64,000 nt of DNA from a phage, in sequence record OZ335959.1; one strand, written 5' to 3'. The translations under genes were made by a program, and so were the position numbers. Of this stretch, positions 17,723 through 58,943 are shown piece by piece. Each line of letters begins with the position of its first letter. Within the stretch, counting starts at the first letter, position 1. The notes under the pieces were generated by a model, which was not told where the DNA came from, ran no database searches, and saw nothing but the letters and a program-made list of their open reading frames with translations.

Positions 17723-17744
17723 TTTATTCTCCTTAGTTGATAGG

Positions 17745-17780
17745 GTAATAGTATCACACTACTACCCTACTGTAAACTAC
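17745..17780 (-). promoter_or_regulatory. early promoter module (-35 GTTTAC 17772-17777)
   Basis: GTTTAC plus GTGATACTATTA -10 region on minus strand. Confidence 0.45.
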
Positions 17781-18142
17781 TTTTTGAAAGTTTTTCGCAA
17801 AAGTTCAATGATTTCGTCGACGTTATTTTCGTCTACAATGCAGTGAATTTTTGTTACGCCAGAAACCTTGTCTTCGATTTCATCTTCTTCAGAAGTCGGT
17901 TCTTTATATTCACGGAAACAATGAAATTCATCTTCGCAAACGTTAAAGTAAAAATGCTTTCCATTTGCGCATTCAATGTATTTTATTACTCTAAATCCAT
18001 CGGCAAAGAAAGCTTCTTTAACTTCAAACCATCCGCCATTTTCTTGAATAATTTTAACTATTGATGAATTAGAACGTGGGCGATAATTAATAAATGTATT
18101 AATAAGTCTTGGAACAAGCTCATACTTTTTGCCGATATACAT
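17777..18142 (-). CDS. hypothetical protein (121 aa)
   Basis: ORF. Confidence 0.5.
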   Translation of the reverse strand: MYIGKKYELVPRLINTFINYRPRSNSSIVKIIQENGGWFEVKEAFFADGFRVIKYIECANGKHFYFNVCEDEFHCFREYKEPTSEEDEIEDKVSGVTKIHCIVDENNVDEIIELLRKTFKK

Positions 18143-21793: not shown

Positions 21794-21801
21794 TATAAAT
21801 A
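21794..21801 (+). promoter_or_regulatory. late promoter TATAAATA upstream of gene 34
   Basis: Exact TATAAATA 35 nt upstream of gene 34 ATG. Confidence 0.65.
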
Positions 21802-31709: not shown

Positions 31710-32366
31710 ATGGCAGCACCTAGAATATCATTTTCGCCCTCTGATATTCTGTTGGGTGTTCTAGATCGCTTGTTCAAAGATAACGCTACCGGGAAGGTTC
31801 TTGCTTCCAGAGTAGCTGTCGTAATTCTTTTATTTATGATGGCGATTGTTTGGTATAGGGGAGATAGTTTCTTTGAGTACTATAAGCAATCAAAGTATGA
31901 AACATACAGTGAAATTATTGAAAAGGAAAGAAATGCACGCTTTGAATCTGTCGCCCTGGAACAACTCCAGATAGTTCATATATCATCTGAGGCAGACTTT
32001 AGTGCGGTGTATTCTTTCCGCCCTAAAAACTTAAACTATTTTGTTGATATTATAGCATATGAAGGAAAATTACCTTCAACAATAAGTGAAAAATCACTTG
32101 GAGGATATCCTGTTGATAAAACTATGGATGAATATGCAGTTCATTTAAATGGACGTCATTATTATTCCAACTCAAAATTTGCTTTTTTACCGACTAAAAA
32201 GCCTACTCCCGAAATAAATTACATGTACAGTTGTCCATATTTCAATTTGGATAATATCTATGCTGGAACAATAACCATGTACTGGTATAGAAATGATCAT
32301 ATAAGTAATGACCGCCTTGAATCAATATGTGCTCAGGCGGCCAGAATATTAGGAAGGGCTAAATAA
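31710..32366 (+). CDS. t: holin T
   Basis: 218-aa ORF (same length as T4 T) with one N-terminal TM and a large periplasmic domain. Confidence 0.9.
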   Translation: MAAPRISFSPSDILLGVLDRLFKDNATGKVLASRVAVVILLFMMAIVWYRGDSFFEYYKQSKYETYSEIIEKERNARFESVALEQLQIVHISSEADFSAVYSFRPKNLNYFVDIIAYEGKLPSTISEKSLGGYPVDKTMDEYAVHLNGRHYYSNSKFAFLPTKKPTPEINYMYSCPYFNLDNIYAGTITMYWYRNDHISNDRLESICAQAARILGRAK

Positions 32367-56332: not shown

Positions 56333-56851
56333 TTAATAACCTCGGTCTTGACGAGCGAAGTTTTCAGCATTTTTCAGATAATAAAGTTTAAAGATTTCTT
56401 CAGCCGTAAGACCGAGACCTTGGAACATGTTCAGAACGAAATGAAGAATATCAATCATTTCGAATTTAATTTCCAACTGGTCTTGTGGAGATAAGTCAGT
56501 AATCAGAGTTTCACGACGTTCACCGTGTTGCGACTTCCAAGGCTTCCATACAGCAGATGCATCTTTTTCGCCATTGCTCATACCACCAAGAGAAGTCAGA
56601 AGTTCGCGGAATTCATCATCAATATAATCTTTCTGATTACGCAGCCAATCAACAACTTCACCTGCAGTAGCCAAATCATCAGGATGACGGTTATATTCAG
56701 GTTTATCTTTAGCTAAACGAACTTGCAGAGATTTCTGCATATCAAGCATAACCTGCAGCGGGTCTTTTTCATCACCGAGAATATCCCAGTATTCATTTTG
56801 AGCTTTATCAGCGCCTTCAATTAGTTGACTACATTCGTTAAAGTATGCCAT
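56333..56851 (-). CDS. 56: dCTP pyrophosphatase (dCTPase/dUTPase) gp56
   Basis: 172 aa from MAYFNE (track ORF runs 93 nt further upstream); AAGGA RBS; MazG-like. Confidence 0.85.
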   Translation of the reverse strand: MAYFNECSQLIEGADKAQNEYWDILGDEKDPLQVMLDMQKSLQVRLAKDKPEYNRHPDDLATAGEVVDWLRNQKDYIDDEFRELLTSLGGMSNGEKDASAVWKPWKSQHGERRETLITDLSPQDQLEIKFEMIDILHFVLNMFQGLGLTAEEIFKLYYLKNAENFARQDRGY

Positions 56852-56922
56852 TATTTTTCCTTTCAATTCATGGGTTAGTAGATTAATTATACAATAAATA
56901 TATAAAGCAATAAGGAGGACAT

Positions 56923-57123
56923 ATGGTACAAAAATTAATGGCACTTGTTAATGCCATAAAAGGTAATAAAAAACGTATAGCTTTTACTATTTCTGCTATG
57001 GTAGGAATTTTACTCTGGAATTTTGTTTTATCACCAATTGCTATTGCTCATGGTGTTAATATTCCGGTAATTACTCTTGATACATTCGTAGATTTAGCAT
57101 TTGCTTTGGTTGGGTTAATTTAA
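56923..57123 (+). CDS. small double-TM membrane protein (66 aa), convergent with flanking genes
   Basis: Plus-strand ORF with AAGGAGGA SD 4 nt upstream of ATG; two hydrophobic helices; stop overlaps gene 61 stop. Confidence 0.5.
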   Translation: MVQKLMALVNAIKGNKKRIAFTISAMVGILLWNFVLSPIAIAHGVNIPVITLDTFVDLAFALVGLI

Positions 57124-58148
57124 ATCTTAGCATATTTAGATAGCCGCATTTTAGCCATCAACCCTTGAGCAATATTATTTTTCATATATTCCATAATTTG
57201 TTCAGGGGTTGCACCTTCCTTTCTAATCATATCATTAACATCTTTTGATTTCCAGGGAGATTTGTCCCAAAACATAACCCTTTCTCCTGCATCAACTAAT
57301 TTAGTCATTCGTTTAATAGTGTCAGGGTGACGAGGTTCATTATCTAAAACCCATACACGTCTATCTTTAAATGGAACAATTTCTAGGTCTAATTGACCAC
57401 CCGTAATAGCTATACCATTTTCAATAAAAAGTGAATCTATAGGTCCTTCTAGAACATATACATCACCATCTTTGACTCGTTCAACTCCATAGATTTTTGT
57501 TGCCTCAGGATAAGCTTTGATGGTGATATATTTTTGGGGAGCATCTTTCTTTAATGCACGTCCTTGAAAAGACTCAGCTTTTCCGTTAGCATTATAAATT
57601 GGAATAACAAGACGAGGCTCGGGCATTTCCTTTTTATATGTTCCTGGCGCTATACTATTAACTAATTTAGGCCATTCGGTTGTAAACCAAAGATATTTCC
57701 ATTTATTCTTTGGAATACAACGAGCTTTTACATATTTTATAATTGGATGGTCTTCCGCCAGTTTATCTAATCTAATGCATGACGGAAGAGATTTAATTAT
57801 TTTCTTCTCAGGTTGTTTAGGAAGTTCTTTAGGTTTTTCTACTGGACGACTTTTACCTTTTTCTTTTCTTATTTCAAAGATATACTCACGATATAAATCA
57901 GGTTCAAACTCCTTTAAATATATTCCAATTGGTGCATGATAGTTACAGTTATAACAATGAATATTTCCTTCATTATTATCGCCATAATACCATCCACGGG
58001 CTTTATTTTGATCGGTTTTTGAATCTCCACAAACAGGACATCTAAACCGTAATTTAAAAGTTGAACTATTATTTACTTGTGCGAATTTAGGTAAATGAGC
58101 TAATGCACGGTATGCAAACTCATTATCAATCCAAGGTATTGATGACAT
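57120..58148 (-). CDS. 61: DNA primase gp61
   Basis: 342-aa ORF with N-terminal zinc ribbon CPVC...CYNC and TOPRIM region; same length as T4 gp61. Confidence 0.92.
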   Translation of the reverse strand: MSSIPWIDNEFAYRALAHLPKFAQVNNSSTFKLRFRCPVCGDSKTDQNKARGWYYGDNNEGNIHCYNCNYHAPIGIYLKEFEPDLYREYIFEIRKEKGKSRPVEKPKELPKQPEKKIIKSLPSCIRLDKLAEDHPIIKYVKARCIPKNKWKYLWFTTEWPKLVNSIAPGTYKKEMPEPRLVIPIYNANGKAESFQGRALKKDAPQKYITIKAYPEATKIYGVERVKDGDVYVLEGPIDSLFIENGIAITGGQLDLEIVPFKDRRVWVLDNEPRHPDTIKRMTKLVDAGERVMFWDKSPWKSKDVNDMIRKEGATPEQIMEYMKNNIAQGLMAKMRLSKYAKI

Positions 58149-58316: not shown

Positions 58317-58943
58317 TTAACCTCTATTCATAAAAGCATTAAAAATTTGGTCATCAATAGAAACATTTACTTTAGACTGTTTTTCTGATGGTAATTCATA
58401 TCCACATATTACAATTTTGTGATCAATATCAAAATACACAGAAGCAATATGATTAATGATGTTTTCAGTAAAGTCTAAATCAACATCAATATCTTTTTGA
58501 CCACAGCCCAAAGGATAAATAATGCGAGTAATTCGATTATCTTTAACAAAGATTCCACCGATATACTCTGTGCTGCGTTTAAAGTCTACACGCCGACGAA
58601 ATGAAAAATATTCAGGCTCTTTATGAGCTCGGCTCATAGGACACAACGAGTAACTAGAATAAGAGATGTCAAATCCTACGCCTTCAATATGAGCCAAAGT
58701 ATTACGATTAAACCAATTATAATCGTACGCCAAATCCATTAGATTATAATATGTAAAAGGCACCGGATTAACATCATTAGTCACAAGCACGTAATTAGCA
58801 ATTGCTATAATTTCATTGTTTTTAACGAATACAAACCGTGATTGATGGGAATGACCTGGACCCGCGTTTTCACGATTAATGATATAACACTGGGCACCTT
58901 TATATTTGTATGTATCTTTGCACTTGTGCATTTGATAGAGCAT
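58317..58943 (-). CDS. hypothetical protein (208 aa)
   Basis: ORF between primase and sp. Confidence 0.55.
   Translation of the reverse strand: MLYQMHKCKDTYKYKGAQCYIINRENAGPGHSHQSRFVFVKNNEIIAIANYVLVTNDVNPVPFTYYNLMDLAYDYNWFNRNTLAHIEGVGFDISYSSYSLCPMSRAHKEPEYFSFRRRVDFKRSTEYIGGIFVKDNRITRIIYPLGCGQKDIDVDLDFTENIINHIASVYFDIDHKIVICGYELPSEKQSKVNVSIDDQIFNAFMNRG

Follow-up and report, generated by a model that had tools for sequence, protein, structure and literature searches.

The 66-codon open reading frame (ORF) that lies between genes 56 and 61 of the phage record OZ335959.1 is a copy of a small accessory gene that is already catalogued, as T4T dam.1 and as PHROG 2024, with its function unassigned. 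We analysed the ORF within a stretch of 64,000 nucleotides of this record, which we refer to as the window. The explanation that best joins the different lines of evidence, and that we hold to be probable, is that this is a real gene, a small accessory of T4-like phages, which is transcribed late and encodes a single-pass inner-membrane protein. The first-pass annotation of the window had set the ORF beside the lack of a dam methylase gene and had proposed a separately regulated, possibly late membrane function. The link to dam turned out to be wrong, the late-gene and membrane-protein ideas are reasonable, and the gene itself is catalogued but unstudied. The ORF is not peculiar to a dam-less phage but is kept in many T4-like phages. 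Few conserved membrane-protein genes of the T-even phages that are probably late still lack an assigned role, and this is one of them.

The small gene and its slot between genes 56 and 61

The features of the locus are collected in Table 1. The interval between genes 56 and 61 (56852-57119) is 268 bp long and contains a single plus-strand ORF, whose translation is MVQKLMALVNAIKGNKKRIAFTISAMVGILLWNFVLSPIAIAHGVNIPVITLDTFVDLAFALVGLI (66 aa, with a full-length product of 7.1 kDa). The stop codon of the ORF (TAA, 57121-57123) and that of gene 61 (the reverse complement of 57120-57122) meet in a common TTAA. The same 4-nt overlap of stops is found in T4, ST0, KIT01, Merlin, and pzk-kv8, and the second copy of the ORF in VR25 and P479 also overlaps the gene 61 stop by TTAA. 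A gap of about 270 bp, a plus-strand 66-aa ORF with a strong Shine-Dalgarno (SD) sequence, and an overlap with the primase stop were what the first-pass annotation had described, and all of this was borne out.

Table 1. Features of the interval between genes 56 and 61 and of its flanks, in window coordinates.
Feature	Coordinates	Strand	Remarks
Gene 56 (dCTPase)	56333..56851	-	left flank of the interval
MotA-type middle promoter for gene 56	56886..56912	-	consensus match only
-10 element of the gene 56 promoter, TATAAT	56886..56891	-	reverse complement of these positions
Late-promoter box AATAAATA	56893..56900	+	A(-13) variant of the T4 late box TATAAATA
MotA box TATTGCTTTA	56903..56912	-	reverse complement of these positions; followed by an 11-nt spacer
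Shine-Dalgarno sequence AAGGAGGA	56912..56919	+	3 nt 5' of the ORF ATG
66-codon ORF and stop	56923..57123	+	orthologue of T4T dam.1, RB32ORF030w, and Bas37 bas37_0144; PHROG 2024
Terminator-like hairpin AUGGCAUU-AACA-AGUGCCAU, then UAAUUUUUGU	56928..56957	-	downstream of gene 61; antisense within ORF codons 6-12
TTAA palindrome	57120..57123	both	overlapping stops of the ORF and gene 61
Gene 61 (DNA primase)	57120..58148	-	right flank; the ORF is convergent on it

The window is of the pSs-1 / EC121 / Sfk20 type of Tequatrovirus, with 99% identity across this region, and the complete genome of Shigella phage Sfk20 is 97.5% identical to the window over 62.6 kb. Gene 61.2 (208 aa; 58317-58943, minus strand) is present in the window and not in the otherwise nearly identical Sfk20, where the alignment has a gap at window positions 58327-58941 and the annotation passes from 61.1 directly to sp.

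A homology search with the 66-aa protein, as the first-pass annotation had proposed, matched the PHROG 2024 / T4 dam.1 family (E=5.4e-31, residues 2-66 against profile positions 1-65 of 65). The ORF also has the position of the family: it lies in the interval from gene 56 to gene 61, runs opposite to both genes, and ends at the gene 61 stop. The T4T dam.1 protein (ADJ39749.1; 17724..17924, plus strand) is identical to the window protein at 63 of 66 positions, with I/V changes only, and the Bas37 protein bas37_0144 is 100% identical to it. Together with RB32ORF030w and RB69ORF029w, these two are the same gene as the window ORF (protein identity 95-100%). Genes of the T4T dam.1 type share with it the position, the orientation, the TTAA overlap, the SD sequence, and an upstream late-type box. 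What differs is the neighbour on the other side, which is dam in T4 and T2 (plus T2_31 in T2) and gene 56 directly in the window.

In T2 the ORF occupies the same position as in T4 and is convergent on gene 61. The T4 reference record NC_000866 holds an intact, unannotated copy at 17738-17938 (plus strand), in what the record presents as an "intergenic" gap of 309 nt separating dam from gene 61. CRISPRi-ART took its gene coordinates from NC_000866 and did not target the ORF (PMC11879866), and the T4 annotation table of the HIDEN-SEQ transposon screen omits it (10.1101/2025.11.20.689424). The ORF thus went unscored in two genome-wide T4 screens because the T4 reference annotation omits it. Literature searches on dam.1, RB32ORF030w, RB69ORF029w, and T4Tp032 found nothing.

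By tblastn, the ORF was found in 693 phage records, always adjoining the primase gene, and it was intact in 687 of them. Positional orthologues occur in sampled members of Mosigvirus, Gaprivervirus, Dhakavirus, Moonvirus, Jiaodavirus, and Marfavirus, and the gene is kept across at least eight T4-like genera, with sampled members of six genera of the Tevenvirinae and of Marfavirus among its carriers. The orthologues in Dhakavirus, Moonvirus, Jiaodavirus, and Marfavirus were identified by position; they are 63-66 aa long, are 17-30% identical to the window protein, and have a common core. The gene is absent from Krischvirus GEC-3S and from Erwinia phage COW86c. Gapriverviruses carry two tandem paralogues 8 nt apart (2495-2901 in VR25, 1929-2335 in P479, and about 2495-2900 in TH40, in coordinates of the extracted loci), with a promoter box before the first copy only. 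The second copy belongs to the Dhakavirus/Marfavirus subtype; in TH40 it has decayed through frameshifts.

We also evaluated the absence of dam, both from the interval and from the window, and here the first-pass annotation was right. A tblastn search of the window with T4 Dam returned nothing below E=1.5, and none of the window ORFs has both the [DNS]PP[YFW] and the FxGxG motif. In the complete Sfk20 genome, likewise, no Dam homologue was found, nor any ORF that combines the two methyltransferase motifs. Since both the window and the nearly identical complete genome of Sfk20 are without Dam, the lineage lacks dam entirely. T4 does carry dam in this interval, the gene order there being 56, dam, ORF, 61, and T2 has the same order with the additional T2_31. 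It was the implied tie between the ORF and the missing methylase gene that failed. The first-pass annotation had anticipated that T4 or T2 might carry the same ORF at this position with dam elsewhere; both do carry it at the same position, but with dam adjacent rather than elsewhere. Because T4 and T2 have the ORF beside dam, the ORF neither replaces dam nor relates to it.

The absence of dam is the commoner state among the close relatives of T4. Database matches at the level of Tequatrovirus comprise 503 records with the ORF (at least 80% identity) vs 182 with a T4-type Dam (at least 90% identity). The sampled Mosigvirus, Gaprivervirus, Dhakavirus, and Jiaodavirus genomes have the order 56-ORF-61 and no dam, and Moonvirus Merlin has no dam in the slot and carries an extra pyrophosphohydrolase gene there instead. 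Most simply, gene 56 and the ORF would bound a slot for optional cargo, which T4 fills with dam, T2 with a DpnII-like gene and dam, and Killian with an HNH/NUMOD3 endonuclease. The window would then represent the empty state of the slot, which is probably ancestral.

The cargo genes themselves allow some further observations. T2_31 (842-1387 of the extracted T2 locus, plus strand) lies directly upstream of dam and belongs to a gene type of 181-186 aa. An IMG/VR relative has a T2_31-like gene (841-1401 of the extracted locus, minus strand) upstream of dam with an ATGA overlap, and bas37_0143 of Bas37 (1469-1654 of the extracted locus, minus strand) is a remnant of a gene of this type. T2_31-type genes gave a sub-threshold Pfam match to the catalytic region of DpnII (E=0.0045 and 0.0096, 16-17 bits vs a cut-off of 23) and no sequence match in the PDB; the DpnII restriction endonuclease is GATC-specific. 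These sequences hint that the dam cargo may have begun as a GATC restriction-modification-like pair of which dam alone is left in T4. GATC is depleted about 3-fold in the window (72 sites vs 225.7+/-13.2 expected from dinucleotide-preserving shuffles), and Sfk20 has 216 GATC sites in 164.9 kb; both are without dam. The Killian gene (1555-2205 of the extracted locus, minus strand) is an HNH/NUMOD3 homing-endonuclease gene between the shared promoter region and gene 56, and ECO07P1/P3 and JE01 have an insertion like it. The window is without segF, which in T4 sits between genes 56 and soc. The neighbourhood of gene 56 is a hotspot for mobile nuclease genes.

Coding constraint and predicted topology

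The ORF truly encodes a protein and is subject to purifying selection, with dN/dS values of 0.10-0.19 in pairwise comparisons within Tequatrovirus and Mosigvirus. W32, N33, and G44 do not vary across 114 distinct sequences, and there is little variation at P38, A40, P48, G64, residue 53 (acidic), and residue 42 (small). The positional orthologues have the core WN-x4-P-x-A-x3-G-x3-P in common. Every promoter-proximal orthologue is preceded by a GGAGG-type SD sequence (AGGAG in Mosigvirus ST0), and the rest of the leader has diverged. Purifying selection on the amino-acid sequence, together with residues that are invariant across eight genera, shows that the protein itself is selected. The proposal of an opposite-strand gene for a small membrane protein was thus upheld by the 687 intact records, the dN/dS values, and a predicted transmembrane (TM) helix.

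The N-terminal residues 1-18 make up an amphipathic helix with a charge of +5, and the five basic residues of the protein are all N-terminal. Strong hydrophobicity follows at residues 19-42 (Kyte-Doolittle about 2.0), which make a clear TM helix. The AF2 model (pLDDT 76-78) has helices at residues 2-13, 16-42, and 52-63, the last two being separated by a conserved loop (HGVNIP, residues 43-51). The first-pass annotation had predicted two TM helices, and the first of these stands. A second full membrane span is doubtful because the C-terminal stretch has two acidic residues, D53 and D57, and a helix of only 12 residues (52-63). On this modelling, the product looks like an N-in single-pass inner-membrane protein with a short periplasm-facing tail, the orientation being that expected from the positive-inside rule. 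The tail of about 24 residues, short helix included, would face the periplasm or the membrane interface.

The constrained half of the protein is the periplasm-proximal one (W32-N33, P38, A40, [AST]42, [HQ]43, G44, P48, [DE]53). The most constrained residues are concentrated in the loop and where the helix ends on the periplasmic side, which suggests a specific contact at that place. The pattern points to a helix-helix or juxtamembrane contact, which may be self-association or an interaction with a partner protein.

The same half of the protein could also be read as a cleavage region. Residues 1-42 would then be a long Sec signal peptide that signal peptidase I cuts after A-I-A42, and the product would be a secreted or processed peptide, a hydrophobic, acidic one of 24 residues (HGVNIPVITLDTFVDLAFALVGLI) freed into the periplasm or into the outer leaflet of the inner membrane. 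In favour of this, the n-region carries positive charge, and an A-x-[AST] site is conserved, with P38 at -5 in 112 of 114 sequences, A40 at -3 in 105 of 114, and A, T, or S at -1 in 111 of 114, followed by [HQ]G. The helix of the AF2 model breaks exactly at residue 42/43. However, the hydrophobic core of about 20-24 residues has the length of a TM anchor, vs the 7-15 typical of cleaved signal peptides, and this h-region of at least 20 residues contains the invariant W32 and N33, which would not be expected in a disposable leader. Thr, a poor residue for signal peptidase I, is at -1 in 33 of the 114 sequences. The length of the hydrophobic segment and the invariant WN within it lead us to favour an uncleaved anchor, and we regard a processed peptide as unlikely.

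Probable late promoter and overlapping signals

We infer, with good support, that the ORF is expressed late, because it combines the opposite polarity with a conserved late-promoter box. The early and middle transcripts of T4 are all of one polarity, and the other polarity is possible for late ones only (PMC2988020). The ORF is on the strand of t and the tail-fibre genes 34-38, opposite to genes 56 and 61. The box AATAAATA lies 22 nt before the ATG of the ORF, so that a -10 box of the TATAAATA type stands shortly upstream, as in late transcription units, for which there is no -35 requirement. The A(-13) variant is found at 9 of 50 listed T4 late promoters (PMC2988020). Late transcription by the gp55-RNA polymerase would use this box and is predicted from the sequence to start at about A56906, which would give a 17-nt leader with the strong SD sequence.

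In seven of the eight genera the start is preceded at 13-22 nt by a late-type box, NATAAATA, among bases that differ. The box is AATAAATA in the window type, ST0, and KIT01, GATAAATA in T4 and T2, CATAAATA in VR25, TH40, P479, and JD18, and a perfect TATAAATA in Marfavirus pzk-kv8; Moonvirus carries ATTAAATA at the box position. The boxes of most lineages depart from the late consensus at -13. The chance of finding ATAAATA in a given 25-nt stretch is about 0.3%. Polarity and the occurrence of the box in seven of eight genera thereby back the separate, possibly late regulation that had been suggested for the ORF.

In the window as a whole, WATAAATA is under-represented (12 sites vs 22.6+/-4.8 expected), and ATAAATA occurs 16 times vs about 45 by a naive estimate. 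The depletion of WATAAATA fits a selection that removes stray late promoters. An SD sequence and an ATG follow five of the 12 sites, among them those of gene 34 (start at 21794), t (31684), soc (56298, minus strand), and the 66-aa ORF. The T4 late genes that lie amid early genes, namely t, soc, e, and rI, resemble the ORF in being short late units with a box of the TATAAATA type and a strong SD sequence in a leader of about 15-30 nt. Within the window, 18 nt separate the ATG of gene t from the same AATAAATA variant, and 30 nt separate that of soc from TATAAATA. The functions of t, soc, e, and rI are known and their late transcripts have been measured, which sets them apart from the 66-aa ORF. 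Our literature searches returned no transcript, start-site, ribosome-profiling, or proteomic datum for the ORF in any phage, and the literature on T4 ribosome profiling and unannotated ORFs yielded nothing on it.

Two other candidates were set aside. For a sigma-70-type early promoter of the ORF there was one weak plus-strand match (56825-56854), in a scan that found 9 matches vs 6.9+/-2.5 by chance. We also gave up treating the "ATAAATAT" boxes of the window and T4, which MAFFT pairs, as homologous. The window box aligns better with the promoter region between genes 56 and dam of T4, and the boxes may therefore have arisen separately.

The window shows a compact arrangement in which the late-promoter box of the ORF falls inside the spacer of the divergent middle promoter of gene 56, the two promoters sharing about 30 bp. 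The gene 56 promoter was recognised by its match to the consensus for MotA-dependent promoters, (a/t)(a/t)(a/t)TGCTTtA, 12+/-1 bp, TAtaaT (PMC2988021). In T4 and T2 about 1 kb separates the ORF box from the gene 56 promoter. The placement of the window box inside the middle-promoter spacer could be tolerated rather than selected.

The terminator-like hairpin on the minus strand (Table 1), which would belong to the transcription unit of gene 61, is identical in T4, and other genera have different hairpin and U-run features in the same place. The Lys-rich N-terminus of the ORF, with its AAA/AAG codons, supplies the U-run of the hairpin on the other strand. An Rfam scan of the interval gave sub-threshold noise only. 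On the plus strand, no intrinsic terminator was found for more than 4 kb downstream of the ORF, and late transcription would therefore run on into gene 61 as antisense.

The gene might accordingly matter mainly through its transcript, by running antisense through gene 61 and by late-promoter occupancy that blocks the gene 56 middle promoter, with the peptide being secondary. Late in infection, this would help to turn off both primase expression and origin-dependent initiation. The long stretch without a plus-strand terminator and the location of the late box between the MotA box and the -10 element in the window type both suit such a role, and in the T4 record oriA is placed in the 5' end of gene 56, whose transcript is given as the primer. 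However, a role of the transcript does not account for purifying selection on the amino-acid sequence and for invariant residues across eight genera. With the box about 1 kb from the gene 56 promoter in T4 and T2, promoter interference is no general feature, and insertions in the Bas37 orthologue were tolerated, according to the preprint cited above. We consider it quite unlikely that the transcript is what matters most.

Possible functions of the protein

A protein identical to that of the window is dispensable for the growth of Bas37 on E. coli K-12. The one experimental datum that we found on the protein comes from transposon sequencing in the HIDEN-SEQ preprint (10.1101/2025.11.20.689424). 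Of the 24 TA sites of bas37_0144, 20 took insertions; the gene is classed as Non-essential on E. coli K-12, and it shows no significant change in two condition comparisons (q=1.0).

Homology, fold, and neighbouring genes gave no functional lead. Scans against Pfam and NCBIfam found no family match for the 66-aa protein, and PADLOC, used for defence and counter-defence genes, gave no hit at E<=1 for the three family members tested. A profile search of 1.84 billion representative proteins returned six hits, all of them family members or fragments. A second, of 5.8 billion clusters, returned 120 hits, all 41-73 aa long and none with a Pfam domain, and those with names came from T4-like phage genomes or from phage contigs filed under host names. 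Functional names among the 120 were limited to one "Holin" and one obviously wrong "DNA packaging ATPase". Foldseek against viral models found, beyond the family, two weak matches to 63-aa proteins, one of them from a T4-like Enterobacter phage, and Foldseek against the PDB found no match.

The name "Holin", which UniRef gives to the homologue of vB_EcoM_OE5505, would fit a holin-like or pinholin-like lysis protein, as would a product that is small, hydrophobic, and probably late; moreover, the holin gene t of the window uses the same AATAAATA promoter variant. However, that name stands on one of about 120 clusters, among which another is mislabelled, and no holin family of Pfam or NCBIfam was matched. 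The protein has a single convincing TM helix, and in place of a charged hydrophilic C-terminus it has a hydrophobic end, DLAFALVGLI. No lysis gene (endolysin or spanin) is adjacent, the neighbours being the dCTPase and primase genes, and holin T is already encoded in the window (about 31710-32366). Transposon insertions in the Bas37 orthologue were tolerated. A role as a lysis protein of this kind is therefore very improbable.

The preferred reading remains that of a dispensable, late inner-membrane accessory protein, which would act on an envelope process. It is speculative to go further and to propose that it tunes a late envelope event, such as lysis timing, lysis inhibition, or membrane integrity. 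Superinfection exclusion and lysis timing, the examples given in the first-pass annotation, are likewise guesses. In a more specific form of this idea, the protein would be an overlooked late inner-membrane factor of T-even phages whose motif, WN...P.A.[AST][HQ]G...P, acts on an envelope partner, either the holin/antiholin machinery (in lysis timing or inhibition) or a host membrane protein. We give this specific form a small chance only. If it were true, the gene would have escaped study through its omission from the T4 reference annotation.

Among the small envelope proteins of T4, Imm, Sp, and RI are like the predicted ORF product in their small size, N-terminal hydrophobic segment, and envelope location. 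Imm and Sp are encoded by early genes on the other strand, unlike the ORF, and have no real homology to it. Homology to the RI antiholin was considered and rejected, as the resemblance was a weak local one of the RI signal-anchor to the TM helix of the ORF product, TM segment to TM segment only (8 of 20 identities, pairwise E=0.009). RI also has a folded periplasmic domain of about 70 residues, vs the roughly 24 residues that follow the TM helix of the ORF product.
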